DNA of 64,000 nucleotides from an uncultured Candidatus Peribacteria bacterium (GTDB lineage Bacteria; Patescibacteriota; Gracilibacteria; UBA1369; UBA12473). Each line of letters starts with the position of its first letter. Position 1 is the stretch's first letter. The stretch is from positions 5,045 through 69,044 of the forward strand of contig CAYYQE010000002.1 in NCBI GenBank assembly GCA_964473745.1, given 5' to 3'. Below the pieces are notes generated by a model. The model saw nothing but the letters and a program-made list of their open reading frames with translations. It did not search any database and had not been told where the DNA came from. Position numbers and translations under genes: made by a program. Shown here in pieces: positions 3,695 to 20,310 of this stretch.

Positions 3695-4504
3695 TTATGA
3701 ATCTTTTGACCCCCTAAGAGCCAAAAAGGATTCTAAATCAAAGTTCAGTCGCGTCATATCATAGACACGCTCGTAAACACCTTTCGACGTTGTTTCCAGT
3801 GCAAAATCGAACTCAACTCCATCAAACACAGTCGTTTTCAAATAATTATATTTTTCCGCTAAGACTTCGTTCAGTTCAGCGTAATCTCTAAACAATGGAC
3901 CATGCAGCACGTAAGCAGTGTAAGCCTCGGCAAAATCTTCGAAGGGATTAGTGCGTGAGTAACCAGACACAAAGTCCCATTTAGAGCCAGTTAGCGATTC
4001 ACTATCAGCCCAGCTAGCAGTGTAAAACTGCACGCTAGGATCAGAATCAAGAACTACTCGTCCTCGATCGACAAATGGAGAAATTTCTCCTTCATCAGTC
4101 GAGGTAATAAGACCAGTATCAACTACATGTCCCAGTTCGTGAATCAGAACAGCCACCAGTTCCTCCGGAGTGGTGTTCACACAACGAAGGATAATCGTAT
4201 GATCTCCTCCCAGGCCCCGGCGCGCCTCTGAGTCAAAACTCAAAATAAGGTTGGTCGCGGCCGCTGTGTGGTTCTCCGGAAGAATGGTGAACACATCAGT
4301 TACAAATTCGGTACACCATTCCAGGGTCTCGGCATCGGCAGTCCCAGCTACCTGGTAGAGCTCAGTTGAGTCCACCGGTGCGCTTTGGAAATTTGAAGTG
4401 AGGGCTTCACGAGATGATGCGGAGATAGTCCCTGAAAACGGGACCGAAGCGGAAAGTAGAATAAGTTGGGAAAGGGCGAGGCTGAGTAGGCGGAAACGAA
4501 TCAT
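3695..4504 (-). CDS. Secreted putative zinc metallopeptidase (HExxH motif)
   Basis: 269 aa with a signal-peptide-like N-terminus (MIRFRLLSLALSQLILLSASVPFSG). The single HELGH motif sits in the context VAVLIHELGHVVD. I recognise no finer family. Confidence 0.55.
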   Translation of the reverse strand: MIRFRLLSLALSQLILLSASVPFSGTISASSREALTSNFQSAPVDSTELYQVAGTADAETLEWCTEFVTDVFTILPENHTAAATNLILSFDSEARRGLGGDHTIILRCVNTTPEELVAVLIHELGHVVDTGLITSTDEGEISPFVDRGRVVLDSDPSVQFYTASWADSESLTGSKWDFVSGYSRTNPFEDFAEAYTAYVLHGPLFRDYAELNEVLAEKYNYLKTTVFDGVEFDFALETTSKGVYERVYDMTRLNFDLESFLALRGSKDS

Positions 4505-5133: not shown

Positions 5134-5658
5134 CTAGTCGTCGGACGGGTGGTCGTCGCCGCGCGCCGCGCGGCGGGCGCGGTACCAGCGGATGATCTTG
5201 GTCAGGAGCATCCCGAACGGGGACAAGAGCACGAGTGCCCCGGTCGCCGTCATGGGGAGCCAGATCAAGGCCGCCGCGGGCGATACAGCCAGGGAACCGA
5301 GCACCGCGAGGATGCCCAGCCCGGTGAAGACCGCACCAGCCACCAGCACGATGGCGATCTGGACCGTGCGCGCGACCAACTTCTCGGTCCGGCTTTCACC
5401 GGGCCAGAGGCGGATCACGTGGTACACGATCCAGGCGAGGACGAAGATGGCCAGGGGGAGGACCCCCATCACCACCGACACGACCCCACCGACCAGGACC
5501 TGGATCAGGACCCAGCCACCACCACCGGAGGACGACGAGCCGCCACCACCACCGTACTGCCGAAGCAGCTCCTCCTGCTCGGAGGAGTATCCGCAGCCCG
5601 CGAGGACCACGAACAGGGTGATGAGGACGAAGAACAGATACCAGTTTGAGTTTCTCAC
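5134..5658 (-). CDS. High-G+C small membrane lipoprotein, compositionally foreign
   Basis: GTG start (5656-5658) preceded by GGAG with a 5-nt spacer. The N-terminus MRNSNWYLFFVLITLFVVLAGC carries a lipobox. A Gly/Ser linker, about four hydrophobic helices and a basic tail (RWYRARRAARG) follow. Third codon positions are almost all G/C, unlike every other gene here. Confidence 0.6.
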   Translation of the reverse strand: MRNSNWYLFFVLITLFVVLAGCGYSSEQEELLRQYGGGGGSSSSGGGGWVLIQVLVGGVVSVVMGVLPLAIFVLAWIVYHVIRLWPGESRTEKLVARTVQIAIVLVAGAVFTGLGILAVLGSLAVSPAAALIWLPMTATGALVLLSPFGMLLTKIIRWYRARRAARGDDHPSDD

Positions 5659-5959
5659 GATTTCTCCACGTATGCGCCGAAGCGTGTTTTTGTTGTTTCG
5701 AGACAGAACCCCCTGATTCGCGCAAAACTGTTAAAATAAATAAAAACATATCGTGCGCATCTCAGGCGGGTCTGCCTCATGAATTCCGCATCACAAAGAG
5801 TCCATGAAAGCACCATAAACCTTATGATGCCCTCATCACTCTCTGTAATGCCCCTAATTTTCAAGGAACAAAATCATCTTTTCTCTCAACTAAAATCTAC
5901 CACATATAGCAAAATAAGTCAATGGTGTCAAACCTTATAATGTTAATAAAAATTTACAA

Positions 5960-8900
5960 CTAAAACGGTAAACGGTCTTTCAGTTTTTCCCACAACCAAT
6001 CGCCACCTTTTTGAGCCCAACTCTTCTTACACATTTCATAGCGATCAGTTAGAAGAGTCTGGTATTCCTTTAAATATTTAGCTTCATTTGTCGGATCAAG
6101 CAGAACTTTTAAGATGTAGGCATCCTGCTGTTCCTTCATTTCTGCTCGGGCCGCATTCACTAGGGCCATATCGAGATCGGTTGGGTTCGTCGCCTTAATT
6201 TTATCGTCCCAAACATTATAAAGAAGATCCATTTTTCCACGTAAATCCAGCACCCATTTCTTTATTACCTCTGGACTAACCGGCCCTGGAGTAACTCCTT
6301 GCTGCTCAGAAAGCTTACGCAAAAGGTCAACAACGTCATCCCACATATCGGGATCAAACGGATTAGTCTTATTTGCTAGAATATCGGCCCCATATTCAGC
6401 TTCAAATTCCTCATAACTAAGAATTCCATCCAATTCTTCCGGCACTTCATCACTTCCCACGACATCATCAAGCCAGGTTCCAGTTACTCCCTTGCGATTC
6501 GCATGGGCACTGTGCACCGCAGTCATAGCCTTAAACTGAACATAGCGCATATAACCATCATGAACCTTTGTCCAATCCGCTGAATCAGTGTTACGAAGAC
6601 TACCAGTATATATTTCTACAACATTCATGAAATCATTTTGAATGTCTTCACTCTGGCTTCCTTGGAAAAAATCAGAACCAGCATAGTCAGTTCCGTCTAA
6701 CTGCCTTCGGAAATTAGCCATATGCTTAGAATAACTTGCGTTCCCATAACCATACGAAGACAGTTGATCATAAATTGCTGCAAACTCATCTGAAGTGAAT
6801 TTTTCAGGTGGAGTCTTGGCACTTTTATTCGCTATCCAGGCACTAATTGCCTGGTTAAAAGCTTCTAACTGGCCAGTCATATTAGCGCCTTTTTGCTGGT
6901 CCAAAAGATCTACCGCCGCCTTCATGGCTGCCGGGTTACCTTTGTGCTTTTCACGAACAGCGCGCAAGTCTTGTTGATAATGCAATCGTGCTTCTTGTTT
7001 TTTGTATTCAACTAGTGATTCCCAGCGATTATCCGCCACTGTTCCGTAAAACAGATCACTAAAATCAAAGCCCGTCACATTTTCCCACGTGATCGAACGA
7101 CCTTCCATCCCCACAAAAATAGTACTCAAAGCATCAAAAGGATCATTGAAATCAGGATCAGATTCCAACCAAGCCGCTTTCATCTTAATAATGTCATCTG
7201 TTAGCGCAAAATCCTCCACTTTTGGTGGGGAAGTAGATTGATCAAATTTCCATTCAATTCCGCTGTCTTTAAAACGAATAACCAATAAATTCGGGTTACT
7301 TGGATCTGGTGGCAAAATTTCATAAGAATCTCGCGCTAATCCCTGCATAACCGGGTTTTGGTTCACAACCTCATCCGCCACTCGACTAACCGTTCGCTCA
7401 TAAGGAGGCGTCTGACTCAAAGCGCTTTCAATACCAAGCGCTTCTACTAGAGTTATCGATGAATCAAAATGCCTCGACCAAAAGCCAGAATCAGCATTTT
7501 GAGCTTCATTCAAAGCAACTTTTATCGCTTCATTTAAATCACGAATATACTGAACTTGCGTGGCTGTTAATTCCGGGCGATCTTTTAACACTTTAGTATG
7601 TTGATACCAAATGTCTTTAAGTTGAAATAGGATTCGGTTGTGGTCCGGATCAGACCGTTCCGCAAACCCGTTAAAATCAAAATCACTTAAAATTGTATCT
7701 GTAAATATTTGGTATTCTGTGGCGTAAGCATCAGAAAAACCATGGTGTTCAAACTTATCACGAGTTTGCTCATAGGCCGCCTGGCTAGTTTCGGCCGCTG
7801 TTCCTAATTCTGCCGGAAGAGTTTCTAGATCTGTTAAAGCCTTTTCAATAGACTCTTCATAAGCTCGTTCAAGCTGGCCCGGAGCAACTGATTTTCCTTC
7901 AAAAGTTTCAAGCCTCATTCGGTAATCACCTAAGATTTGACCTTTTTTCGCTTTAACTAATTCTTCCCAATAGTTATTAGTGCTGTCCGGCCATCTTAGT
8001 TGTCCAATATCTAGGAACCATCTCCCTGCGGAAAGTTTTTCTCCGGCCCCTTCAAATTTCTTAAATAATGCCTTAAATTCATGATTGTCAGCTGCCTTAT
8101 TCACCAAGGCCTCCACTAAATTATCACTAAGCGTAAGTGATTCAATCACATACTCATTTTTAAGCACATTCCATTCCAAAATTACTGGCGCACCAGCGAT
8201 AACTCCTTTAATTTTCCAATCACTAGTAACCCCAGTTACTTCTAAACCAAGGCTCATTAAACGACTTGTTTCTGGGGAATTATTCATTTGCTGCCCAATC
8301 TCCTTCTCCAAAATCTCGTTTTGGAAGATTTTTTTCATTTCTTCTAAATTAGAAGCTTTCTTATCACCGAAAACTAATTGTGCGGTTTTTTCCTCTGTTA
8401 CTTCAAAAGTTAGCGGGAAAGAGTGTGGTTGCTGTCGGTTACCTAATTGACTAGCTAAAGTATAACTATAATCAGGTTTAACCTTCCATTTTTTAGAGCT
8501 CGCATCCCATTCCACTGAATAAGAGCTGTCAAAACCAGTGTATTCAAAAAGTCTAGCCACTCGTTCTTCTATATAAGCGGTTAATTCACCCTTAGTTCGT
8601 TCTAATTTTTCTTTTTCTGAAGTTCCCATATCTTCACTAATCGAAAAAGCAAAAACCCGACCTGTTGTAGTGTCTTTGAAAACATGTTGCGTTACGTCAT
8701 AACCTAAAAAATAATCTTTACTAGAATAATCAAAAGAATACCCCATCAACTCCACGTCTCCGAGAGCAGGGGATTCACTAAGTCCTAACTGTTTTAATCC
8801 TGGGACAGCCGTGGTTATAGCAATAGCCACTCCCGCGGCCACCCTTTCAGTTCTTTCAGAAGGTGCTGACCCGGCACTAGGTTTTTTTTTACCGCTACCA

Positions 8901-10111
8901 CCAGTAGAACTAGTGGTTTCTTCGTCAGTTGAGGTTTCGGCCGAGGCCAAACCATCGCCGGTAGAAGAACCCGAATCACTTGCTTCCGAAGCTTCCTCTT
9001 CAGCACTAGCTATTCCCGAACCAGTTCCATCGGACTCAACACTGGATGAAGCGCCAGTACCTCCAGAACAAGGTGTTTTTTCCATAAAAATTACTTCTCG
9101 CAAGTTATAGTAACCACGAGATCCGGTTTCTGGAGTATTTTCTACATATTGCTCTCTATAAACATCAACTTTTGTTCCGACAATAGCAAACATTTCTTGG
9201 TACATGGCTTTCCCATGAGTTTGGTTGAAATATTTAGCCGGTAAAGTGCGTCCTTGCGGTGTTCGGCGCAAAGTACTCATATTAATTTCATCTTTGTGAT
9301 TTCGGCGGGCGTGATCATAAGCATTCAAAAAAGTTTCAAAAGGAATCGAACCAATACCCCACATATGACGTAGTGATTGGCGATCAACTTTATCTAATCC
9401 AGTTTGACCATCAAGGAACTGGAGAACTTCATCATCAATGTCCGGGTCTCCAATTAGGCCTTCAATATGTTCCACAGCTGATTTATCTGTAAAGATTTCT
9501 GTTAAATAGTTACCCGTCAATAGCCCAACGCCAGTCAAAGCCGCATACTTAAACCAGGGGCGTTCTTTTTTATCACCAAGCATCTTAAAAGACGTACCCC
9601 ACAAAGCATAGGCACCGATAAGCGTTGCTCCGATAGCTCCAATAGTTAAAAATTTATGATCAACATAACTTTCTTTAATCTTTTCAGCTGCTTTCCCCAA
9701 AAGGCCAGTTACTGTTTCGGTATTAATTGTTTCAAAACTTTCAGTCATTTCGTGATATTGAAATTGTCGTTCTCGTAAAAGAGCCACAATCTTATCAAGT
9801 ACTTTTTTCCCGTATTTATATTTTTCAGAAGAAGGGTCAGCTCGTAAAAAACTTAGCAATTTCACTCCCGGTTCCACCGTAGAAAAGGTTCTTTCAATTT
9901 CATCTAAATGATCGCTGCTCAAAGGGTTAGATGACCATCCCTCAAAATCAATTGTTTGGTTTCGGCAGTATTCTAGGATTCGGTCTAAATCGCGTCCCGA
10001 AAGATTCGATTCCACACTTTCTTTAAGTTTTTCAAGTTCGGCACTGGAGCCAGTTGGCATCTCAACCGCGGAAAGGTCAATAGCACATTCTTCTGTTTCT
10101 TCATGACCCAT
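5960..10111 (-). CDS. Giant orphan membrane-associated protein (1383 aa)
   Basis: Uninterrupted ORF. Two adjacent hydrophobic helices (FLTIGAIGATLIGAYALWGTSF and WFKYAALTGVGLLTGNYL) lie near residues 165-215. A Ser/Thr/Gly/Glu-rich low-complexity linker is encoded at about 8830-9070. I recognise no enzymatic motif. Confidence 0.7.
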   Translation of the reverse strand: MGHEETEECAIDLSAVEMPTGSSAELEKLKESVESNLSGRDLDRILEYCRNQTIDFEGWSSNPLSSDHLDEIERTFSTVEPGVKLLSFLRADPSSEKYKYGKKVLDKIVALLRERQFQYHEMTESFETINTETVTGLLGKAAEKIKESYVDHKFLTIGAIGATLIGAYALWGTSFKMLGDKKERPWFKYAALTGVGLLTGNYLTEIFTDKSAVEHIEGLIGDPDIDDEVLQFLDGQTGLDKVDRQSLRHMWGIGSIPFETFLNAYDHARRNHKDEINMSTLRRTPQGRTLPAKYFNQTHGKAMYQEMFAIVGTKVDVYREQYVENTPETGSRGYYNLREVIFMEKTPCSGGTGASSSVESDGTGSGIASAEEEASEASDSGSSTGDGLASAETSTDEETTSSTGGSGKKKPSAGSAPSERTERVAAGVAIAITTAVPGLKQLGLSESPALGDVELMGYSFDYSSKDYFLGYDVTQHVFKDTTTGRVFAFSISEDMGTSEKEKLERTKGELTAYIEERVARLFEYTGFDSSYSVEWDASSKKWKVKPDYSYTLASQLGNRQQPHSFPLTFEVTEEKTAQLVFGDKKASNLEEMKKIFQNEILEKEIGQQMNNSPETSRLMSLGLEVTGVTSDWKIKGVIAGAPVILEWNVLKNEYVIESLTLSDNLVEALVNKAADNHEFKALFKKFEGAGEKLSAGRWFLDIGQLRWPDSTNNYWEELVKAKKGQILGDYRMRLETFEGKSVAPGQLERAYEESIEKALTDLETLPAELGTAAETSQAAYEQTRDKFEHHGFSDAYATEYQIFTDTILSDFDFNGFAERSDPDHNRILFQLKDIWYQHTKVLKDRPELTATQVQYIRDLNEAIKVALNEAQNADSGFWSRHFDSSITLVEALGIESALSQTPPYERTVSRVADEVVNQNPVMQGLARDSYEILPPDPSNPNLLVIRFKDSGIEWKFDQSTSPPKVEDFALTDDIIKMKAAWLESDPDFNDPFDALSTIFVGMEGRSITWENVTGFDFSDLFYGTVADNRWESLVEYKKQEARLHYQQDLRAVREKHKGNPAAMKAAVDLLDQQKGANMTGQLEAFNQAISAWIANKSAKTPPEKFTSDEFAAIYDQLSSYGYGNASYSKHMANFRRQLDGTDYAGSDFFQGSQSEDIQNDFMNVVEIYTGSLRNTDSADWTKVHDGYMRYVQFKAMTAVHSAHANRKGVTGTWLDDVVGSDEVPEELDGILSYEEFEAEYGADILANKTNPFDPDMWDDVVDLLRKLSEQQGVTPGPVSPEVIKKWVLDLRGKMDLLYNVWDDKIKATNPTDLDMALVNAARAEMKEQQDAYILKVLLDPTNEAKYLKEYQTLLTDRYEMCKKSWAQKGGDWLWEKLKDRLPF

Positions 10112-10190
10112 AATTTTGGGGTTTTATTATTTTTATCTACTAATTATACCAAAAAACCGCTTCTAGATCAAGCCCAGGTTATAAAAAACT

Positions 10191-10538
10191 CTACTTTTTT
10201 TCCGGCGGCTCATCCATTGCCAAATGTACGGCATCTCCCATCATCATCATTTGATTGTAAGTGGAATCTAGCACGCCTTCGAGGGTGTCTTGCAAGTCCG
10301 GACGACTCTCAATTATTACGTTAAGCGCCTCCTCGTTAGAGGCCTCTGGGTGAGATGTTTGATAAGTCTTCATAACTTCCCAGTCCTGATCTGTTAGGGT
10401 TTGTTCCAAAGCATTTTGAATCTGTTTATCAATCACTTTTTCTAAACGAAATTCAATGGTTTTTTGCATGTTAGGCGTAATTTTCCCTAAATTTAGGTCT
10501 TTTATAATCAGTCGAATAAAATCTTTAAGTTTTTTCAT
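10191..10538 (-). CDS. Small acidic helical protein (115 aa), hypothetical
   Basis: The ORF starts 9 nt after the stop of the upstream giant gene. By eye it is helical and acidic, and it resembles small CPR-type proteins of unknown function. That resemblance is memory-based and weak. Confidence 0.55.
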   Translation of the reverse strand: MKKLKDFIRLIIKDLNLGKITPNMQKTIEFRLEKVIDKQIQNALEQTLTDQDWEVMKTYQTSHPEASNEEALNVIIESRPDLQDTLEGVLDSTYNQMMMMGDAVHLAMDEPPEKK

Positions 10539-10547
10539 GAGAGGGGG

Positions 10548-13500
10548 TTAATTATTGCTGCCACGACCACGACGGCTACGGCGGTGCAAAAGCCAGTTAG
10601 TAACAAAGGAGCTTCCTAAACTAAATAAACGATCCGCAGAAAGCCACGAACGCCAGCCAGTAGTGGCTACCGCAGTCCCATCACCATCCGCATCACCATC
10701 GGTCGGACCTTCAATTAGCGGTTGGCGAACGCCGCGGTCGGCCTGGGCCTCGGAAATCGTCATAAAATGGCCAGGATTGCCACTAACATCACCGGTAAGT
10801 TGTTCACCAAGCATCGAGGCAAATAACGCGGCTTTATCTGTTGGGGCATTTGGTGCACTTAATTTTTTGCGGACCAAAGCCGTGCAATAAACAGCCTCGA
10901 GCCGTTCCAATAAATACACAATTTTGGCACTGTCTTTTAAGCGTAGACGAGCCCCACTTTTAGCATCCATGGCCAATGGCCGCACATGATCATCAATTAA
11001 TTCGCGCAGTGATTCTAGACTCAACACCGCGGTATCGCCTTCGCCTACCCAGCTCGCTATTTCAGATAGGGGAGTGTTAAGTCGCAATTTTTCTAATTGT
11101 CGGAATTTTGGATTAGTTAACAAATGGTCAATGCGATATTCATCAAAACTGCGCGGAGCCTTGCCCATAACAATATCTTTTTGCTCGCGAACCCATTGCA
11201 CAACTCCCGATGGAGTAGACGCATTTTCCGCTAAACGACGGATTCGACGCGCATAAACCGCTCGATTTCGGGCGGTATTTACCATCAGCAAAGCCGAAAC
11301 CATTGATCGGAATTTCCTTTCTTCTGGATCCCCAAACTTTTTCATATATTCCGGATCAGTCATGTGTAACTGACGTAGCGTTTCAATGGGGGTGAGATTG
11401 TTCGTAGGACGGCCAGCATGAGCTTGGCGAGTCGCTTTGGCCTGAGACACCCCTCGCACGGCTTCCGTATATTCAGTCTCAAGTTGTTGGAAATTTAAAT
11501 AATGAGCGTCTTTAAGATCTGTTTTGGTAGTTCCGGTAGGTAATTCAGTAGTTTTATATTTTTCAAAAGCTAGCGTGGGATCAAAGCGCTCATCAAATTT
11601 TCTCTGGTCATCAATTTGCGTTTGATCAAGAGCTCTTTTGTCAGTTTCCCAGGTTGCAAATCGGGTTGTGTGGTCCGCCATCAACGCCGCTGGGGCGTCA
11701 GTCAAAGATTTCATAGCTGCATCCCAGGCCGCCTGATCAGCAACCGCTGAAAGGGCGAGAGGACCTGAATTAACAACTGAAAAAAGACCTTTGATAGTCG
11801 CATCAGCGTGGTTAATCTGCCGGTTAAAGGCGGTCGTGTAACCAGCTCTTAAGCGACGACTCTTGGCGGTTAATTGACCTAATTTAGTTTGAGCTTGTTG
11901 ATGTTCGCTTTGAAGAGTTTGGAGTTGCGCTTCCATAGCCTGCAGTCGTGTTTCGCGCGGGTCGGCCATGGGAGCCATCGGCATAAGATTAGGTGCCGCC
12001 GGAGCAGGAGGTTTATTGCTAATATCATCTTTTAAAGCTTGGATACTCTTTTCTAAAGCGAGTTTGTCGGCTTCAAATCGGCGAATTTCAGCTTGTTCAT
12101 CCTGTTCCGCTTGTTGAAGTTCATTTTCAAATCTTTGGAATCGGTCCTTTCTCTCTTGAAGAAGCTTCGGATTATTATCACTTGGATCTGCTTCTTGTTT
12201 TTGGATCTTTCGCCTCGTATAGCCAATCCTATTTTTAAGTTTACGAACCTCTTCAGCGCGGACGGTGCGAGCTAACTCGCGTCCAGTTTCTAAATCTTGC
12301 AGCTCCCTTTCTTGTCTTTGTAAAAGATCTTCGCGTGGGTCAGGCGTAGCATTAGGGGCCGCACTAGGAGTTGGTGCTGGTGGCGGAGTAGAGCTTATCT
12401 GACCACGAAGCGTTCCGACAGCTTGCTCTTGTTTTTTTGCGCGTCCATCAAGCTCGTCTACCTCACCCTTTTTAGTGAAGCGTTCTTCTTCAGCTTCAAT
12501 AATTTTAATAATTGCATCCGCGGCTGGTTGATAACGGTTCAAAGTAGTTTCTCTTTCCGCCATTAGGCGAGATTTTTCTGCTTTTTTGCGGTCGAATTTA
12601 CGTTTTTCCGCATCACGAAATTTCTTTATAGGTTCATAGAATTTTCCAACTTCGGTTAAACGTTCTTCGGCTTTGGTTACGTCCCCGCCCACAGCCTCGG
12701 TATGTAATTCCTTTAAACGGGCCAGAGGTTGTTCATCGGGAGCCAGAGGGGGCTTGCCCGGAACGGGTCGAGTTGTCGGCCGTCTTAAATAAGCCAAAAC
12801 AGCAATCATATCCGGAGTAGCTTCAATTTTTCCGCTCCCACTTTTGTCTTTAGGGATTAAATCTTCTCCCATTAGGTCTCGCAAAGTATCTCTTAAATCA
12901 GCTCGACTAGCATCATTAACCCAGTTCAAGTTTTCCTGTGGATGGAAAATTGTTAAATGTGGAGCAGTGCGCACCAGTGTTTCTCGGAAAACCTCTTTCC
13001 CTTCGTTAGTAAGCACTTTATTAGGGTCAGCATGATCAAATTCCCTTCCTTGCATATTTACACGGAAGAAACGCTTAACTCGGTGGCGCAAAACCCATTG
13101 ATATAGGGTGTAATTTTTTTTGTCGCGCTCTGATACACGGGATTTGGGGATGATTGGATCGGCCTGTCGGGTAGGGGACAGCGAAAACTGTTTCATCTTA
13201 GATTCAACACCTTCAACCTCTGTTTTGGAGGCATTAGCCGCTTGTGCAGCAGCCGTAAGCCTGGTTGCTATTCCAGAGTCATTCGGATCCCTGTTAAACA
13301 TTCGCAGGGCCTCTTCAGCCTCGCTTTTCGCCCGTGATGCCTGACTAGCGGCCTTTTCTGTCTGTTGCCAAATATCGTTTGCTTTCGCGGTGATATCTTC
13401 GGCTAATTTTGCCTTAGCTTTAGCCATAATTATCACCGCTGGGCTCGCCCCTGACTGGGTTAGTCTATTGACAGCTTCATTGGCAGCATATGCTCTGATA

Positions 13501-15365
13501 TCCATCCTATTAACAAGGATTTCGGTTGCATCTCCTGCCTGGCGGGTTTTTTTCTGGGCATTTGTTGAGGTTGTCACCAAATTTCTTATCACTGCTTGAG
13601 AAGGTCTAACAGTTGTTGCCGCTTGAGTAACTTTATCCATTTGCTCCACGCTTGATTTTGCCGCAACAAGCGCTGTTGAAGAATTTCTAACGGCCAAACC
13701 TGGCTCAATTACTTCGTTGGCCATTTTTTGTATAGCCCCATCGGCTAACTGGGCTGCCCCAGCAGCCTGACTAGAGGCCTGGACAGCGCTCCAAGTTTTA
13801 GCTTGTAGATCATCAAACGCTTTTTTAGCCTCAGCTTCTTTTTTAGCAGCATCACTGGCTAGCGTCTGAACTCGTTCTTCAAGAGTTTTAGCTAATGCTT
13901 CAGCGGCAACCGCTTTGGCCTCAGCGGCTGCTATCACGTCCGGGGTTGTAGCTGTAACAACCGCAGCTCGTTTGTCGGTTGCGTCGGTTCGCGCCTTGGC
14001 TGCATCGGCCGTTGTTGAAGTAATTAGTACCTCAGCGGCAACCACTTCGGCCTCGGCGTCAGAACTAGCATTAAATGCTGTCATAGCGGCAGCAGACGCT
14101 TCTTTAGCGGCTTGTGCCTTGGTAGCCGCGTCTTTCACCAGTGTTTTAACCTGATTCTTAGTAATTTCAGCAAAGGCCTCCGCTTCAATTGCTTTAGCCT
14201 CGGCTGCTGCTATCACGTCAGGATTTGCCCCTTTTCGAATAGCCGTAATAGCTGCAGTTCGTGCGGCAGTCGCAGACGTCGCTGTTGACTTGGCTAGTGC
14301 CTCCACAGCAGTTTGCGTTATTTTCGCTTTTGAATTCATTCTAGTTACCGCGACCATCACAGCAGCCATGCCCGTTTCGGATGGAGAGGTTGGTATTTCT
14401 TTTTTGGAAACATTAAAAGCTGCGCCGGCAAGCCTACTAGTCGCGGCAATTTTCTTAGGTACTTCAGCTGGCATTGCGGTTTCAACTGCATAGGCGGCGG
14501 TTTTAGCTTCAGTGGTCATTTTCAAAACCTTTATAGCCTGTTTTTGGGCCGTATCAGCAAGCTTTGCTATTGCCTCTGCTTCCTTAATTTGAACAATTAT
14601 ATCAGCTTTATCGTAAGGAGGTACTCTCTTAACCTTACCTCGAAGGCCCTCGGCTGTAGCTTCAGTTGCAGCAGCCAGACCCTCCGCCGTGGTTTTGGCA
14701 ATAGTTGCTCTATTTTCGGCGGTATCAGCCGCTTCTTTTAAAGGCTCTAAGCCAACGTTTATAGATACCTTTCCAGCGGTGTTAGCTGCCAACACCAATT
14801 TTCTTAAAGCTTCAGTTGCTTCACCTTTAGTAATCCGGGCCTCTCTTCGCTGATCGGCATCAAATTTCTCTAACTTTAGAGCAATATCTTCTCTTACAAC
14901 AGTTTCCGCAGACTCCATCGCCGCATCAGACGCATTAACTTTCCTTACTCTATCCAACGCCTTTCCACTAGCTACACTCTCCTTACTAATTTGGCTTTGT
15001 TTTTGCCCTAGCGAACGATTTATAACCTTCACCTTCCCCTGATCTTGTTTTAATATTTTCGCCAATTCTGCCTCGGGCATATCGTGGATAATTCCAAATT
15101 CCGCTTCTAGGGCGGCAGCTTCTCGATCCCAAATAACCCGATAAGCAATTGGGTCGGTAACAGCAGTTATTTTTTTAAGATTTCTTTTTCGAATAGAATC
15201 TATCGGAATTTCGCCGTCAGCATCAGGCTGGGACATACGATCCCAAACTGCGTCCGCCTCCGCTTGGCCAGGCGCAACTCCCTCCAAACTCCAGTCACCT
15301 TCCAGAAGGTCACGCTGTGCAGCATCATAAGCCGCCTGTCCGTGTTTTATGTCGGATGTTTGCAT
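10548..15365 (-). CDS. Giant orphan Ala-rich/coiled-coil protein (1605 aa from ATG 15365; ORF track extends to 15425)
   Basis: Uninterrupted ORF with no N-terminal signal peptide. It contains a 93-aa Ala/Lys/Glu-rich tandem duplication, a duplicated Pro-rich plus heptad-like module, and a C-terminal hydrophobic segment followed by a polybasic tail (HRRSRRGRG). I moved the start to 15365 because the track's TTG start is the first codon of a TTGACA -35 hexamer. Confidence 0.7.
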   Translation of the reverse strand: MQTSDIKHGQAAYDAAQRDLLEGDWSLEGVAPGQAEADAVWDRMSQPDADGEIPIDSIRKRNLKKITAVTDPIAYRVIWDREAAALEAEFGIIHDMPEAELAKILKQDQGKVKVINRSLGQKQSQISKESVASGKALDRVRKVNASDAAMESAETVVREDIALKLEKFDADQRREARITKGEATEALRKLVLAANTAGKVSINVGLEPLKEAADTAENRATIAKTTAEGLAAATEATAEGLRGKVKRVPPYDKADIIVQIKEAEAIAKLADTAQKQAIKVLKMTTEAKTAAYAVETAMPAEVPKKIAATSRLAGAAFNVSKKEIPTSPSETGMAAVMVAVTRMNSKAKITQTAVEALAKSTATSATAARTAAITAIRKGANPDVIAAAEAKAIEAEAFAEITKNQVKTLVKDAATKAQAAKEASAAAMTAFNASSDAEAEVVAAEVLITSTTADAAKARTDATDKRAAVVTATTPDVIAAAEAKAVAAEALAKTLEERVQTLASDAAKKEAEAKKAFDDLQAKTWSAVQASSQAAGAAQLADGAIQKMANEVIEPGLAVRNSSTALVAAKSSVEQMDKVTQAATTVRPSQAVIRNLVTTSTNAQKKTRQAGDATEILVNRMDIRAYAANEAVNRLTQSGASPAVIIMAKAKAKLAEDITAKANDIWQQTEKAASQASRAKSEAEEALRMFNRDPNDSGIATRLTAAAQAANASKTEVEGVESKMKQFSLSPTRQADPIIPKSRVSERDKKNYTLYQWVLRHRVKRFFRVNMQGREFDHADPNKVLTNEGKEVFRETLVRTAPHLTIFHPQENLNWVNDASRADLRDTLRDLMGEDLIPKDKSGSGKIEATPDMIAVLAYLRRPTTRPVPGKPPLAPDEQPLARLKELHTEAVGGDVTKAEERLTEVGKFYEPIKKFRDAEKRKFDRKKAEKSRLMAERETTLNRYQPAADAIIKIIEAEEERFTKKGEVDELDGRAKKQEQAVGTLRGQISSTPPPAPTPSAAPNATPDPREDLLQRQERELQDLETGRELARTVRAEEVRKLKNRIGYTRRKIQKQEADPSDNNPKLLQERKDRFQRFENELQQAEQDEQAEIRRFEADKLALEKSIQALKDDISNKPPAPAAPNLMPMAPMADPRETRLQAMEAQLQTLQSEHQQAQTKLGQLTAKSRRLRAGYTTAFNRQINHADATIKGLFSVVNSGPLALSAVADQAAWDAAMKSLTDAPAALMADHTTRFATWETDKRALDQTQIDDQRKFDERFDPTLAFEKYKTTELPTGTTKTDLKDAHYLNFQQLETEYTEAVRGVSQAKATRQAHAGRPTNNLTPIETLRQLHMTDPEYMKKFGDPEERKFRSMVSALLMVNTARNRAVYARRIRRLAENASTPSGVVQWVREQKDIVMGKAPRSFDEYRIDHLLTNPKFRQLEKLRLNTPLSEIASWVGEGDTAVLSLESLRELIDDHVRPLAMDAKSGARLRLKDSAKIVYLLERLEAVYCTALVRKKLSAPNAPTDKAALFASMLGEQLTGDVSGNPGHFMTISEAQADRGVRQPLIEGPTDGDADGDGTAVATTGWRSWLSADRLFSLGSSFVTNWLLHRRSRRGRGSNN

Positions 15366-15385
15366 AGGTTTTTTTATTCTTCTAT

Positions 15386-15425
15386 ATTCTAACATAAATT
15401 TACAAAATTGGCAACCCATTGTCAA
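15386..15425 (-). promoter_or_regulatory. Two overlapping sigma70-like promoters for the giant-protein operon
   Basis: The first is TTGACA (15420-15425)-N17-TAAATT (15397-15402). The second is TTGCCA (15409-15414)-N17-TAGAAT (15386-15391) with a TGT extension. Both are upstream of the ATG at 15365. Confidence 0.55.
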
Positions 15426-15502
15426 GTTAATTGTTTTGTTCTAAAATCATTTGCCAAACCTCCTAAAGCCACGTAGCATAAAATCAATTTAATCTTATAT
15501 TT

Positions 15503-18013: not shown

Positions 18014-18685
18014 ATGAATCAACAATTACTTTCGCACGTTCAGCAAAAATCTCTTCAAAAGAGAGTCCCACCAATTCGTCCCGGGAATACGGTGCGAGTT
18101 CATCAAAAAATTGTTGAATCAACTAAAGATGGATCCAAGGAGCGCATCCAGCTTTTTGAGGGGCTAGTGATTGCCGTAAACAGCGGCACCGGAACAGATA
18201 AAACTTTTACAGTTCGCAAAATTGCCAGTGGGGTCGGAGTAGAAAAGATTTTCCCAGTTCACTCCAGCAATATTGCCAAAATTGAAGTACTTAGAAATTC
18301 AAAAATTCGCCGTTCAAAACTATATTTCATGCGGGATCGAACCGGTAAAAGCGCTCGACTAAAAGAAGCCAAACTTTTGGGTTGTGATTTTTCAGAGGAG
18401 GAAGAAGTAACCGAAGAAGCAATTCAAGAAGCAGTAGTGGCCGCCAAAGAAGCTGAAGAGGCAGAAAAGGTTGCCAAAGAGGAGGCTGGCGAAGAACCAG
18501 CCGCCGAAGAACCAGCCGCCGAAGAACCAGCCGCCGAAGAACCAGCCGCCGTTGAAGAACCGGCGGAAGTAGAACCCGAAGCAGTAGAAGCCGCTCCAGA
18601 AGAAACTACTCCAGAAGAAACACCCGAGGTTGCGCCTGAGCCGGAAGCAGCAACCGAAGAACCCGAGGAAGAGAAATCTGCCTAA
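18014..18685 (+). CDS. rplS: 50S ribosomal protein L19 with about 105-aa acidic C-terminal extension
   Basis: The core RPGNTVRVHQKIVE...RIQLFEGLVIAV...FTVRKIASGVGVEKIFPVHSSNIAKIEV matches L19. The tail after about residue 118 is Glu/Pro/Ala-rich. Confidence 0.9.
   Translation: MNQQLLSHVQQKSLQKRVPPIRPGNTVRVHQKIVESTKDGSKERIQLFEGLVIAVNSGTGTDKTFTVRKIASGVGVEKIFPVHSSNIAKIEVLRNSKIRRSKLYFMRDRTGKSARLKEAKLLGCDFSEEEEVTEEAIQEAVVAAKEAEEAEKVAKEEAGEEPAAEEPAAEEPAAEEPAAVEEPAEVEPEAVEAAPEETTPEETPEVAPEPEAATEEPEEEKSA
18491..18550 (+). repeat. Perfect 4x tandem 15-nt repeat (GAAGAACCAGCCGCC) encoding (EEPAA)4 in the L19 tail
   Basis: Read directly: units at 18491-18505, 18506-18520, 18521-18535 and 18536-18550. 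Confidence 0.95.
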
Positions 18686-19269: not shown

Positions 19270-20310
19270 ATGACCAAACCAACCTGGATCATTTGTGGCA
19301 ATTATGGAGCTGGGAATTTAGGAGACGAGGCTGTTTTAAGGGGCCTTTTAAACCTGTGGGGAACAGAAAAAAACCTAATTGTAATGAGCGTCAATCCCAT
19401 CCAGACACACCAAGAATTTGGAGTAAAGACTATTAACAGATTACCCAGCGGCCTGCGGTCCCGCTTAAAGGCCTGGTTCATTCCCAAATATCGAGCTGAA
19501 TTAAACAAAACTAAAGAAGCTATTTCAAATTGCGATCGCTTTATTTTAGGTGGGGGAACCCTGCTAACTGATGAGCCGCGCGCCTCGATGTTTGTTTGGG
19601 GAAAACAGTTAAAAGCAGCTTTTAAATATGGGAAAAAAGTTGAATTTTATGCCAATGGAATTGGTCCCCTAAACTCAAAATGGGCTAAAAAGTGGGCCAA
19701 ATCTCTTTTGCAGCGTGCCCAAGCACTGAGCGTCCGAGATAATCTTTCCTTAGAATGGCTAGATTCACTCGGGATTAAAGGAGCTCAATTAGTAAAAGAT
19801 CCTGCTCTACACCTCACTTTAAACCCTACAAAAGCAACTAAAGAGTTCCCCAAAAACACCATAATCCTGGCGCCACGGTTTTGGGAAAAGCACCATAATC
19901 AGACCACAGAATCGCTCAAAAAATTTGTTCAATACCTCTGTGTTGAACAAGGTAAATATATGGTTGGAATACCCTTTGAAAAGAACAACAAAAAAGACAC
20001 GGATTTGCTGAGTAAAATATTTGATCAAGAAGGGGTAAGGAATTCATCTGAAATTTGGAAAGATTACAAAAATGAAAATGAAGTTTTAGAAACTATGGCC
20101 CAAGCAGAAATGGTTATCGGCATGCGCTTGCACAGTCTTCTTTTTGCTCACCTTGCCGCAACACCTTTCATTGGTTTGGCCTACATGGAAAAAGTAGTTG
20201 CTCTTGCTAAAGATTTAGATCCCGAAAATCCCATTATCAGCTTAGATAATTTATCTTACGAAAATCTAAAAAGAGCCTATCTAAGTTGCGCCCCAAAAGT
20301 TTCTTCGTAA
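19270..20310 (+). CDS. csaB: Polysaccharide pyruvyl transferase, CsaB-like
   Basis: The pattern GNYGAGNLGDEAVL ... ILGGGTLLTD ... NGIGP ... VRD..S ... DPAL matches my memory of the PS_pyruv_trans family. The exact orthology to CsaB is inferred from the co-occurring SLH proteins. Confidence 0.65.
   Translation: MTKPTWIICGNYGAGNLGDEAVLRGLLNLWGTEKNLIVMSVNPIQTHQEFGVKTINRLPSGLRSRLKAWFIPKYRAELNKTKEAISNCDRFILGGGTLLTDEPRASMFVWGKQLKAAFKYGKKVEFYANGIGPLNSKWAKKWAKSLLQRAQALSVRDNLSLEWLDSLGIKGAQLVKDPALHLTLNPTKATKEFPKNTIILAPRFWEKHHNQTTESLKKFVQYLCVEQGKYMVGIPFEKNNKKDTDLLSKIFDQEGVRNSSEIWKDYKNENEVLETMAQAEMVIGMRLHSLLFAHLAATPFIGLAYMEKVVALAKDLDPENPIISLDNLSYENLKRAYLSCAPKVSS

Follow-up and report, generated by a model that had tools for sequence, protein, structure and literature searches.

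The minus-strand genes G1, S and G2 are best explained as a gene cluster of the core genome that is particular to Peregrinibacteria, and it is tentatively proposed that their products build a lineage-specific, non-enzymatic structural scaffold on the cytoplasmic side of the membrane. The cluster spans 9.4 kb, or 14.7% of the window, that is, of the whole 64,000-nucleotide stretch of DNA that was analysed. ORF calls bear out the arrangement described in an earlier, sequence-only reading of this DNA, namely three co-oriented minus-strand ORFs separated by 9 and 79 nt, and the three are real genes that look co-transcribed:

10548..15365, minus strand: G1 (A family), 1605 aa (ORF and translation)
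10191..10538, minus strand: S, acidic, 115 aa (ORF and translation)
5960..10111, minus strand: G2, 1383 aa (ORF and translation; full-length orthologues found)

The listed ORF of G1 (10548..15425, minus strand) extends to a TTG at 15425; G1 proper begins at the ATG at 15365, because both orthologues have their ATG at the aligned position and the TTG sits upstream of the -10 box. The S gene always lies immediately 3' of the A gene, and the spacing between them is tight (5-9 nt in closer relatives and 9 nt in the window).

The window belongs to a CPR bacterium, Candidatus Peregrinibacteria. These genes had been taken for orphans, but orthologues are present in at least 10 Peregrinibacteria loci. 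In all relatives retrieved, the cluster divergently adjoins tig, the trigger-factor gene, and in every one of them it is placed between tig and a block of putative peptidase, SfLAP and VKOR genes; one syntenic relative is a 1.43-Mb contig, probably most of a genome. All relatives keep the anticipated synteny, and their ORFs are intact, although A-S-G2 is only one of two forms, the other being A-S-B-C-G2, in which two extra genes, B and C, lie between S and G2 (5 relatives). G1 orthologues of 876-938 aa occupy the same position in loci L002, L003 and L082, and an S HMM detects copies of S in 10 near-clade loci and in L005, L006 and L008. The cluster is lineage-specific, as had been supposed, being kept throughout uncultured Peregrinibacteria. 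When 1.84 billion representative proteins were searched exhaustively with HMMER, G2 had only 17 relatives, and the cluster was not found in viral contigs. Judged by their sequences, G1 and G2 are fast-evolving, with 24-37% identity between relatives versus 46-92% for neighbouring genes.

Two regions of the cluster carry promoter-like sites:

15366..15502, no strand assigned: regulatory region in the divergent G1-tig intergenic spacer, with two overlapping sigma70-like promoters
10143..10171, minus strand: promoter-like site, putative internal promoter in the S-G2 spacer (TTGATC-17-TATAAT with TG; consensus scan)

The two overlapping sigma70 promoters previously proposed ahead of G1 exist as sites in the consensus scan, the first (TTGACA-17-TAAATT, 15425..15397) overlapping the upstream TTG and the second (TTGCCA-17-TAGAAT, 15414..15386) having an upstream TG. 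The scan by itself is no proof, because promoter-like matches in the region are no commoner than in shuffles (15 observed vs 15.8 expected). Nevertheless, the 137-nt intergenic region shows 81% column identity among three genomes (the window, L002 and L003) whose giant genes are there ~32-35% identical, and both hexamer pairs are kept in all three (TTGACA, TTGCC(A/T), TGTTAGAAT), which supports a real regulatory region. The site in the S-G2 spacer could act as an internal promoter.

Downstream of G2, the cluster is followed by a conserved neighbour and its leader:

5655..5922, minus strand: promoter-like site plus the RNA leader of gene D, which contains a long inverted repeat; L002 and L003 share the region
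5134..5658, minus strand: gene D, 174 aa, with an extreme GC3 (0.88), hydrophobic helices and a signal resembling that of lipoproteins (LAGC)

The leader region contains a promoter-like TTGACT-17-TAGATT at 5922..5894 (minus strand), and the leader RNA is very stable (fold z-score -8.1, with none of 200 shuffles equally stable); Rfam holds no family for it. Positional orthologues of D in L003, L082, L085 and L086 have GC3 values of 0.80-0.89, and what had been regarded as a foreign island is a positionally conserved gene and no recent insertion. In addition to D, the envelope-related neighbours comprise a signal-bearing putative metallopeptidase (Mx), an SfLAP/DsbD-like protein and VKOR, with a CsaB-like pyruvyl transferase among the nearby cell-envelope genes, and a VirD4/TrwB-like coupling ATPase is encoded elsewhere in the window (49211-51712).

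G1 is predicted to consist of long alpha-helices, with neither a signal peptide nor a transmembrane segment; its AF2 model is all helical, with helices of 50-63 residues, and of low confidence (mean pLDDT 49). The features attributed to it beforehand were recovered, including the lack of a signal, the Ala/Lys/Glu/Thr-rich region, the duplicated Pro-rich plus helix module and DGDADGDG:

13296..15212, minus strand: Ala/Thr/Lys/Glu-rich window-specific insertion, aa ~52-690, not in the L002 and L003 orthologues
11811..12413, minus strand: duplicated Pro-rich plus helix module, aa 985-1060 and 1105-1185 (self-comparison)
10791..11918, minus strand: conserved C-terminal core, aa ~1150-1525, where the A family is most conserved
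10551..10703, minus strand: C-terminal tail, with acidic DGDADGDG, Trp, a short weakly hydrophobic stretch and polybasic HRRSRRGRG

The insertion holds three copies of a ~65-aa module starting G-x-x-P-[DA]-V-I (shuffle z-scores 10.7, 5.4 and 4.7), with no tandem repeat at the DNA level. Self-comparison aligns aa 992-1050 with aa 1116-1177 (41.5% identity, E 5e-7), and the second Pro-rich copy alone is common to the orthologues in the family alignment. Altogether, ~770 aa of G1, comprising the Ala-rich repeats and one Pro-rich copy, are a window-specific internal duplication missing in the 876-938-aa orthologues, and through internal duplications the window G1 is ~700 aa longer than these. The core is 31-35% identical to those of L002 and L003 and has a weak collinear profile match (E 0.0043) to the A'' proteins of L006 and L008. 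The order of the tail (acidic, then hydrophobic, then basic) recurs, with few exceptions, among the A, A' and A'' proteins without sequence conservation, with 4-9 Lys and Arg within the last 25 residues across three clades no longer alignable, which points to a physico-chemical property, membrane binding for example, as the target of selection. The tail anchor suggested earlier is not established, since the C-terminal stretch is weakly hydrophobic and below the transmembrane threshold (mean Kyte-Doolittle 1.6 per 19 residues), and the hydrophobic moment of the C-terminal tails (0.36-0.62) is not above the same-protein background (0.47 +/- 0.09), so an amphipathic membrane-targeting helix is not demonstrated. 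In the A'' proteins of L006 and L008, the C-terminal segment resembles a true transmembrane helix.

The layout previously given for G2 (a head, a membrane hairpin, a Ser/Thr/Gly/Glu-rich linker and a long remainder) is present, with ~960 residues after the linker, although the second helix of the hairpin is weak:

9491..9652, minus strand: hydrophobic two-helix hairpin, aa ~154-207, position conserved across the family
9077..9490, minus strand: juxtamembrane conserved helical domain, aa 208-345, motifs GSIPF, AYxHAR and GKAMYxE, AF2 pLDDT mostly 65-85
8849..9076, minus strand: disordered Ser/Thr/Gly/Glu-rich linker, aa 346-421, AF2 pLDDT 25-40
5963..8848, minus strand: ordered body, aa 422-1383, AF2 pLDDT mostly 75-93

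An acidic 150-aa N-terminal domain precedes the hairpin, which consists of helix 1 (Kyte-Doolittle 1.8), a loop of ~20 aa and a Gly-rich helix 2 (~1.0, range 1.0-1.4, weakly hydrophobic), and whose position is conserved in 12 of the 15 tabulated family members and visible in the remaining 3. The linker varies in length and sequence among orthologues. The AF2 model of the body shows first a region rich in beta structure, then a helical domain, a small beta domain and finally a large domain that is again helical.

The cluster proteins gave nothing above threshold in Pfam, NCBIfam, PHROGs, PADLOC or PDB sequences, with no relation found in PHROGs or PADLOC, and their database copies are named only "hypothetical protein"; the view that this is an undescribed system therefore stands, with no curated family or fold match and no confident profile or structure match to SMC/Rad50, tape-measure, adhesin or secretion families. 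The motif check revealed no conserved P-loop, HExxH or LPxTG. Foldseek found no match in PDB or BFVD for the G2 AlphaFold model, which is usable (mean pLDDT 72).

According to the proposed scaffold, for which we infer the topology, the physical interaction of G1, S and G2 and the cellular role, G1 would be a cytoplasmic product, an elongated rod of mainly alpha-helical structure that can vary in length by internal duplication, and would be tethered at the membrane through the hydrophobic and polybasic tail at its C-terminus. S, whose synthesis would be tightly coupled to that of G1 across the 9-nt spacer, could be the small helical partner or adaptor of G1. G2 would be membrane-inserted through the two-helix hairpin, with its N-terminal head on the cytoplasmic side and the 960-residue body, via the flexible acidic linker, likewise cytoplasmic. 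B and C might be dispensable accessory subunits in some lineages, and the complex may organise the membrane or envelope, for instance with respect to cell shape, to polarity, or to a site of attachment or division. Counted in favour of this proposal are the core synteny, the lack of an export signal, the conservation of tail and hairpin, the rod-like, variable-length G1 and the lack of any enzyme sign, as well as the probably coupled and strong expression of A and S suggested by their tight spacing and the conserved strong promoter. Against it count the fast evolution and the Ser/Thr/Gly-rich linker following a membrane segment, which are typical of surface proteins too, the envelope or exported nature of the neighbours D, Mx, SfLAP and VKOR, the low pLDDT of the G1 model, a tail amphipathicity no higher than background, and the hairpin charges, which weakly favour the opposite topology.

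This last point, together with the neighbourhood, could speak for a cell-surface or host-contact apparatus, an unlikely reading in which the G2 juxtamembrane domain, stalk and 960-aa body lie outside an episymbiotic CPR cell, the second G2 helix being a signal anchor, the Ser/Thr/Gly/Glu-rich stalk spanning the wall, and G1 and S assisting from inside. The hairpin loop is slightly positive (net charge -1 to +3, or 0 to +3 as argued for this reading) and the flanks are slightly acidic, so the positive-inside rule weakly favours termini outside; the linker directly after the membrane segments is disordered and acidic; G2 as a whole is strongly acidic (net charge -78), resembling the genome's exported proteins; evolution is far quicker in the giants than in the neighbouring genes; and D, the putative metallopeptidase, the SfLAP/DsbD-like protein and VKOR, all of them neighbours, are envelope-related. 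However, N-terminal signal peptides are missing from G1, S and G2, whereas the genome's real surface proteins have them and two also have SLH domains (the exported proteins with such signals being SLH proteins, the Mx peptidase and D), which makes surface or host contact the weaker option of the two raised in the sequence-only reading, membrane tethering being plausible. Moreover, the cluster lacks SLH or any other wall-binding domain, the weak hydrophobicity of helix 2 does not favour a signal anchor, and the 150-aa acidic head would need to be translocated, which is unlikely, unless G2 had a single-span topology, against which the second hydrophobic helix argues. Conserved cysteines are absent from the 15-sequence G2 alignment despite the adjoining VKOR-type disulfide system, and the good G2 model has no Ig-like, adhesin-like or beta-helix folds.

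It is quite improbable that the cluster encodes an over-diverged enzyme or transport machine, for example for the synthesis or remodelling of an envelope polymer, with the G2 body as a novel catalytic domain and G1 and S as regulators. The alpha/beta and helical domains of G2 are well folded (pLDDT 75-93) and resemble no known fold, and the nearby cell-envelope genes (CsaB-like pyruvyl transferase, Mx peptidase, VKOR) would suit such a role, but polar residues are nearly missing from the invariant or near-invariant columns of the 15 G2 members, which hold Gly, Trp, Tyr, Phe, Leu, Met and one Lys, with no conserved catalytic-type residues; in addition, no nucleotide-binding or metal-binding motif occurs and no enzyme fold was matched.

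The least probable reading is a secreted giant effector with its chaperone, in which G1 leaves by a non-classical, e.g. type IV-like, route with its Arg/Lys-rich tail as secretion signal, S is a small acidic VirE1-like chaperone, and the hairpin of G2, bilobed like those of Inc proteins, could serve for insertion into a host membrane. In Agrobacterium and Bartonella, the C-terminal signals of T4SS substrates are positively charged, and chlamydial Inc proteins contain hydrophobic hairpins of bilobed form. The conserved positive charge of the tail in families A, A' and A'' would fit this reading, as would the VirD4/TrwB-like ATPase and the small acidic helical protein always encoded right after A, but no secretion genes lie within or beside the cluster in the loci examined, the VirD4-like gene is 34 kb distant without surrounding T4SS partners, the sole BID-domain match is noise (E 0.11), the hydrophobic stretch ahead of the basic tail better fits membrane binding, and effectors are not usually found in strict core-genome synteny with housekeeping genes.

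Several known systems can be set beside the proposed cytoplasmic-face scaffold. Phage tape-measure proteins are, like the giants, very long, helical and length-variable, and one is the best BFVD match of the G2 model (E 1.7e-3), but a TM-score of 0.08 and an rmsd of 36 Å mean no real superposition; PHROGs matches, nearby phage genes and viral-contig copies are all absent, and the synteny is core chromosomal. Vipp1/PspA/ESCRT-III proteins, also long helical hairpins acting at membranes, top the Foldseek list for the G1 model, a generic helix similarity only (E >= 1.0, query-normalised TM <= 0.11, model pLDDT 49). Distant S members (L006, L008) align full-length with DUF5663 (PF18908; model positions 2-83 of 84), alike in size and helical character, at 16-18 bits, below the 23.7-bit cut-off, whereas the window S and seven near relatives have no match; DUF5663 is an uncharacterised small-protein family without known function, and a literature search found no paper mentioning it. 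G2 shares with chlamydial Inc proteins two close hydrophobic helices, a short loop and large hydrophilic termini expected on the same side, but it is much larger, has no type III secretion system or signal, and gives no indication of leaving the cell. In the C-terminal membrane-targeting sequences of MinD and FtsA and in bacterial tail-anchored proteins, the extreme C-terminus is a short stretch, hydrophobic or amphipathic, that includes basic residues; MinD/FtsA-type tails resemble that of G1 in conserving the character of the stretch over its sequence on an otherwise soluble cytoplasmic protein, although G1 is otherwise unrelated to them, having neither an ATPase nor an actin fold, and its tail lacks above-background amphipathicity. 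Finally, the terminal organelle of Mycoplasma has no sequence or profile similarity to the cluster proteins, which lack an EAGR box, and no counterpart of S or of the hairpin-bearing G2, and Peregrinibacteria, unlike Mycoplasma, have a wall and SLH proteins. Nevertheless, its proteins HMW1, HMW2, HMW3 and P65 are giant, signal-less, fast-evolving and lineage-restricted proteins of reduced genomes, with coiled-coils or long helices and acidic and proline-rich segments, peripheral on the cytoplasmic face of the membrane, and it is to these that the cluster proteins may be likened in size, composition and lack of a signal peptide.

The cluster consists of three co-oriented genes on the minus strand, the first of which, G1, is divergent from the trigger-factor gene tig. 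The coordinates, given here as window positions, and the protein lengths come from a six-frame ORF list.

10548..15425, minus strand, G1 ORF (A family), 1605 aa counted from the ATG at 15365
10191..10538, minus strand, S, 115 aa
5960..10111, minus strand, G2, 1383 aa

This list bears out the three ORFs and the spacers of 9 nt and 79 nt described in the sequence-only reading, whose account of the cluster is accurate, except that "orphan" and "three-gene" need correcting. The G1 start was set at the ATG at 15365, because this codon is conserved and matches the start ATG in two orthologues; the alternative TTG at 15425 was rejected as start codon since it lies upstream of a conserved -10 box. Two promoter-like hexamer pairs were found ahead of G1 by a consensus scan, in agreement with the sigma70-like promoters previously proposed, but such matches are no commoner than in shuffled sequence (15 found versus 15.8 expected). 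Unlike the scan counts alone, conservation lends the promoter claim real support, since the 137-nt G1-tig intergenic region shows 81% identity by column and keeps both hexamer pairs.

Exhaustive phmmer searching with G2 aa 184-1383 against 1.84 billion representatives retrieved only 17 relatives (E-values 1e-191 to 1e-11), 12 of them at E < 1e-30 and nearly all 1200-1370 aa long, which are collinear with G2 along their full length, carry a hairpin of two hydrophobic helices near aa 150-200 and are encoded downstream of the A-S pair. Gene order in their contigs, one of which (L082, 1.43 Mb) is probably most of a genome, runs from tig to the divergent A-S-[B-C]-G2 genes and then to gene D, a putative Zn-peptidase (Peptidase_Mx-like), SfLAP and VKOR; B and C are two extra genes of some relatives, and the A-S-[B-C]-G2 order is constant in all contigs examined. 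Thus, the genes are not the orphans they had been taken for, given the relatives of G2 and the recurrence of the cluster beside tig, and the three-gene system is correct only in part, as three-gene and five-gene forms both exist among relatives. The ORFs are intact in the contigs examined, so pseudogenized or chance ORFs were rejected; the break in the sole split A gene (L084) falls at a run of unknown bases, and the databases also have an intact version of 821 aa.

A genome scan with tig, which in the best relatives is 76-80% identical to that of the window, assigned the window to Candidatus Peregrinibacteria/Peribacteria, a CPR lineage, and reached L002 and L003, whereas scanning the genome collection with the single G2 protein returned nothing. 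Both loci carry five minus-strand ORFs upstream of tig, as follows.

A, 926 aa in L002 and 876 aa in L003; matches G1 in three collinear blocks of 27-35% identity (BLAST)
S, 118 aa in both; 45-64% identical to the S of the window (BLAST)
B, 477 aa in L002 and 447 aa in L003; no counterpart anywhere within the window
C, 155 aa in L002 and 151 aa in L003; no counterpart anywhere within the window
G2, 1326 aa in L002 and 1347 aa in L003; 32-35% identical to G2 along its full length (BLAST)

An 11.4-kb ENA metagenome scaffold (L001) has the same three genes, almost identical, and a metagenome scan added one extra locus. A word-indexed search of 5.8 billion proteins returned only G1 itself and missed even the database entry of G2, probably because low-complexity linkers filled its candidate list.

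The cluster proteins diverge faster than their surroundings. Identity to L087 (same species as L003) is 32% for G2, 31% for G1 and 64% for S versus 68-92% for syntenic neighbours, and identity to L082 is 24% for G2 and 39% for S, with G1 not detected, versus 46-72%. In the distant L004/L010 clade (tig 43-44%), genes of 537-657, 106-108 and 1245-1254 aa lie beside tig, and the large protein is genuinely homologous to G2 (hhalign E 2.3e-6 across 706 collinear columns; family HMM E 3e-18 for the L004 member). The two smaller proteins, A' and S', were not linked to A and S by hhalign, and their equivalence is drawn from position, size and C-terminal pattern together with the G2 homology. By the S-family HMM, L005, L006 and L008 also have an S copy upstream of tig (E 1e-10 to 1e-12); those of L006 and L008 (S'') are preceded by proteins of 985-994 aa (A''), whose weak, collinear match to the G1 C-terminal core (E 0.0043) is suggestive only. 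L006 (JAABSF010000010.1) belongs to a MAG labelled Deltaproteobacteria, yet its tig and A''-S'' pair are typical of Peregrinibacteria-related CPR loci, and the contig is probably mis-binned or mislabelled. In L008:796-2637 (minus strand), the A''-S'' pair is followed by proteins of 339 and 613 aa, with no G2 homologue in that place; the 613-aa protein has tandem coiled-coil repeats (DTLENDQKRLDHDIAGTTGRV), so that the A-S pair is again linked with coiled-coil proteins.

B (430-534 aa) and C (99-155 aa, acidic and helical) sit between S and G2 in five relatives (L002:4815-6735, L003:4962-6770, L083:2463-4535, L084:6361-7979 and L086:5998-7998) and occur in neither the window nor L082 nor L085; in L086, the S-B interval is interrupted by a TPR gene and a beta-helix gene, both on the opposite strand. 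Mx, the Peptidase_Mx-like protein, shows the best conservation in the extended neighbourhood: at 41-49% identity, it recurs as the second gene after G2 in every clade, L004/L010 included. Further features of the neighbourhood are the following.

3695-4504, minus strand, Mx, 269 aa, signal peptide, sub-threshold Peptidase_Mx match
5134-5658, minus strand, gene D, just downstream of G2, lipoprotein-like membrane protein of 174 aa
5655-5922, minus strand, conserved promoter-like TTGACT-17-TAGATT between G2 and D, followed by a leader
18014-18685, plus strand, L19, 223 aa, Pfam domain only in residues 5-118
19270-20310, plus strand, CsaB-like polysaccharide pyruvyl transferase
35894-43039, plus strand, 2381-aa S-layer-like protein, net charge -329, CarboxypepD_reg, Big_5 and SLH domains
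44347-46590, minus strand, M23 peptidase with SLH domains
49211-51712, minus strand, stand-alone VirD4/TrwB-like coupling ATPase, 833 aa

The GC content of D is 0.67 and its GC3 is 0.88, versus a GC3 of 0.32-0.43 in neighbouring genes, and the region had been read as a foreign island. That reading fails, since positional orthologues in four other genomes (L003:25-624, L082:14197-14649, L085:5251-5793 and L086:12390-12809), although too diverged as proteins for BLAST, have a GC3 of 0.80-0.89; D is a conserved gene whose codon bias is conserved as well. The leader of about 240 nt between G2 and D contains a long conserved inverted repeat (CAGAGAGT.ATGAGGGC.TCAT ... ATGGACTCT.TGTGATG), with a variable insert between the arms in relatives, and its predicted fold is much more stable than those of shuffled sequences (-93.8 kcal/mol, z -8.1). 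It matches no Rfam family and could be an ncRNA or regulatory leader. Only about 126 residues of L19 align to relatives, its C-terminal extension of about 100 aa varying between them. The SLH proteins and the CsaB-like transferase together indicate an SLH/pyruvylated-polymer wall-anchoring system in this CPR bacterium.

None of the cluster families could be assigned to a known one. Pfam and NCBIfam gave nothing above threshold for G1, S, G2, their orthologues, B or C; PDB sequences gave nothing with single proteins or family profiles; and conserved P-loop, Walker B, HExxH, LPxTG and WxG motifs are absent from the families, as the sequence-only reading had it for P-loop, HExxH, adhesin and secretion motifs. 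The database entries are named only "hypothetical protein", a literature search found nothing on these proteins, and a genome paper on this lineage (PMC4736985) describes large exported Cys-rich proteins but gave no match to the cluster in a term search. Profile, PDB and structure comparisons likewise gave no confident match to SMC/Rad50, tape-measure, adhesin or T4SS/T7SS proteins. SMC and Rad50 proteins are recognized by Walker A/B ATPase heads flanking a coiled coil with a hinge or Zn hook, and an SMC-like ATPase was rejected on the negative family, P-loop/Walker B, PDB sequence and fold results. A tape-measure assignment needs TMP homology and a location inside a tail-gene module; a prophage or tape-measure origin was rejected, as PHROGs gave one weak coiled-coil match of unknown function, no cluster matches were found in viral contigs and the best structural match in BFVD has a TM of 0.08, while the cluster sits among tig, L19, RNase HII and IF-2, with CsaB-like pyruvyl transferase, PfkB, RmuC, ClpB, DnaE and three tRNAs as further housekeeping neighbours in the window. 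T7SS loci are marked by a hairpin protein of about 100 aa with a WxG motif, by an N-terminal LXG domain and by a nearby EssC ATPase, and a T7SS substrate (WXG100/LXG) was rejected, S having a conserved D-W and no WxG, LXG/WXG Pfam matches being absent and the cluster having no FtsK/EssC-like gene. An anti-phage defence system was rejected because PADLOC has no matches for G1, S, G2, B, C or D.

G1 has an Ala/Lys/Glu/Thr-rich region, and its repeats, previously noted by eye, are real: an Ala-rich module of about 65 aa occurs in three copies (shuffle z-scores 10.7, 5.4 and 4.7) and a Pro-rich plus helix module is duplicated (41.5% identity, E 5e-7), with no tandem repeat found beneath them at the DNA level. 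By internal duplication, G1 is about 700 aa longer in the window than in its orthologues, a freedom in length more usual in rods or spacers than in enzymes. A model of aa 700-1605 built from four sequences only has low confidence (pLDDT 49) and predicts uniformly long helices of up to 50-63 residues; its fold search, which brought up only helical-hairpin proteins without significance (Vipp1/PspA and CdvB among them, E at least 1.0), is uninformative. G1 ends in DGDADGDG, a short hydrophobic stretch and HRRSRRGRG, and in every clade the A-family C-terminus passes from an acidic through a short hydrophobic segment to a basic tail, with 4-9 K+R among the final 25 residues, although the sequences there do not align. 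A tail anchor had been proposed; the hydrophobic-then-basic pattern is indeed conserved, but the segment is only marginally hydrophobic and its hydrophobic moment does not exceed background, although that of the L006/L008 A'' proteins resembles a true TM helix. The class of C-terminal membrane-targeting signals is defined by a hydrophobic or amphipathic segment sufficient for membrane binding. Given the background-level moment, the pattern is regarded in general terms as a putative C-terminal membrane-association signal.

S follows A at 5-9 nt in closer relatives, which suggests coupled synthesis. The S of the window has no DUF5663 match, whereas the distant S'' proteins score 16.4-18.1 bits across the full length of this model, below the Pfam gathering threshold of 23.7 bits; sub-threshold as it is, DUF5663, itself an uncharacterized family that no paper found in a literature search mentions, is the only family-level lead for the cluster. 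Against PDB sequences, S shows a summed weak resemblance to designed HEAT-like alphaRep repeats, no stretch being significant alone.

G2 has an acidic head, then a pair of hydrophobic helices (aa about 154-207), a linker rich in Ser/Thr/Gly/Glu and some 960 more residues, as translation confirms for the hairpin, disordered linker and large body already described. Helix 1 has a Kyte-Doolittle value of 1.4-2.0 and the Gly-rich helix 2 one of 1.0-1.4; the hairpin position is conserved and the loop is usually 10-22 aa. The surrounding charge bias is weak and slightly favours loop-in, whereas the absence of a signal peptide and the acidic head, which puts 150 aa ahead of helix 1, speak for a topology with both termini inside. 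An AlphaFold model of aa 184-1383, obtained with a 15-sequence alignment, is usable (mean pLDDT 72) and predicts the following regions.

about aa 208-345, helical juxtamembrane domain, pLDDT mostly 65-85
aa 346-421, disordered linker, pLDDT 25-40
from aa 422, beta-rich region, helical domain, small beta domain and large helical domain, pLDDT mostly 75-93

Foldseek found no significant match for this model in the PDB (best E 0.09, TM at most 0.1), and its best match in BFVD, a tape-measure protein (E 1.7e-3, rmsd 36 A), is no real superposition.

From the observed anatomy and conservation we infer a topology, interactions and a role which, with somewhat less than an even chance of being right, would make the cluster products a structural complex without enzymatic activity, peculiar to the lineage and located at the cytoplasmic side of the membrane. 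G1 would be a helical rod tethered by its tail, S its small partner, and G2 a hairpin-anchored hub bearing a large body on a flexible linker, to which B and C might be added as optional subunits.

Display of the G2 body at the cell surface, which would agree with its fast evolution, linker, acidic composition and envelope-related neighbours, seems unlikely, since G2 lacks a signal peptide, an SLH domain and conserved cysteines and its helix 2 is weak. Gram-positive surface adhesins have an N-terminal signal peptide and a wall anchor (LPxTG or SLH), whereas the N-termini of G1, S and G2 are hydrophilic and have no export signal, as had been noted for G1, and the 2381-aa and 747-aa SLH proteins, Mx and D of the same genome carry obvious signal or lipoprotein sequences. 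An LPxTG/SLH adhesin or M-like protein was rejected for these reasons. That G2 is an unrecognized enzyme appears quite improbable from its conservation pattern: invariant or near-invariant columns of the 15-sequence alignment hold Gly, Trp, Tyr, Phe, Leu, Met and a single Lys, and no catalytic-looking residue cluster was found in the family.

A secreted effector with its chaperone is very improbable, even though G1 has a basic C-terminal tail, S is a small acidic partner and a lone VirD4-like gene lies 34 kb away. Type IV secretion substrates typically have a positively charged C-terminal signal and are linked to T4SS machinery or to a BID-type domain, whereas no T4SS or other secretion genes are linked to the cluster at any locus examined and the sole BID-type match has E 0.11. 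The basic A-family tails, conserved in character, come after a hydrophobic stretch and would suit membrane binding just as well as such a signal. The VirD4-like gene adjoins a peptidoglycan-binding-domain protein and AspRS, with no other type IV secretion genes found within the window. The least credible reading is a host-interaction system of an episymbiotic CPR bacterium, in which G1 would be exported via a non-classical route reading its basic tail, S would keep it secretion-competent and G2 would enter a membrane at the cell-cell contact by its Inc-like bilobed hairpin; if true, Peregrinibacteria would gain one of their first proposed candidate effector/chaperone modules, made up wholly of new folds.

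A structural complex at the cytoplasmic face of the membrane is the reading preferred here. Peregrinibacteria and other CPR bacteria have tiny genomes, about half of whose genes lack an assigned function, and next to nothing has been learned of their cell biology; uncharacterized lineage-specific families are common in them, so that the cluster is a good lead rather than a surprise. Nevertheless, a 9.4-kb cluster with a strong predicted promoter that combines a fixed chromosomal position across the lineage, fast sequence change and large proteins with no recognizable fold makes a concrete candidate for a cell architecture particular to the lineage, for instance a membrane skeleton, an attachment site or a division site, and families A, S, B, C and G2 and their boundaries are now defined and testable.

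The newness of the cluster means that nothing known is related to these proteins and is not a demonstration of a new mechanism. Its nearest analogues, in function and not by homology, might be the cytoskeletal proteins of the mycoplasma terminal organelle, membrane tethers of the MinD/FtsA or tail-anchor type and bilobed-hairpin proteins such as chlamydial Incs. The cluster is real, conserved and undescribed, and it lies so far from anything characterized that it ranks as new at the level of protein families.
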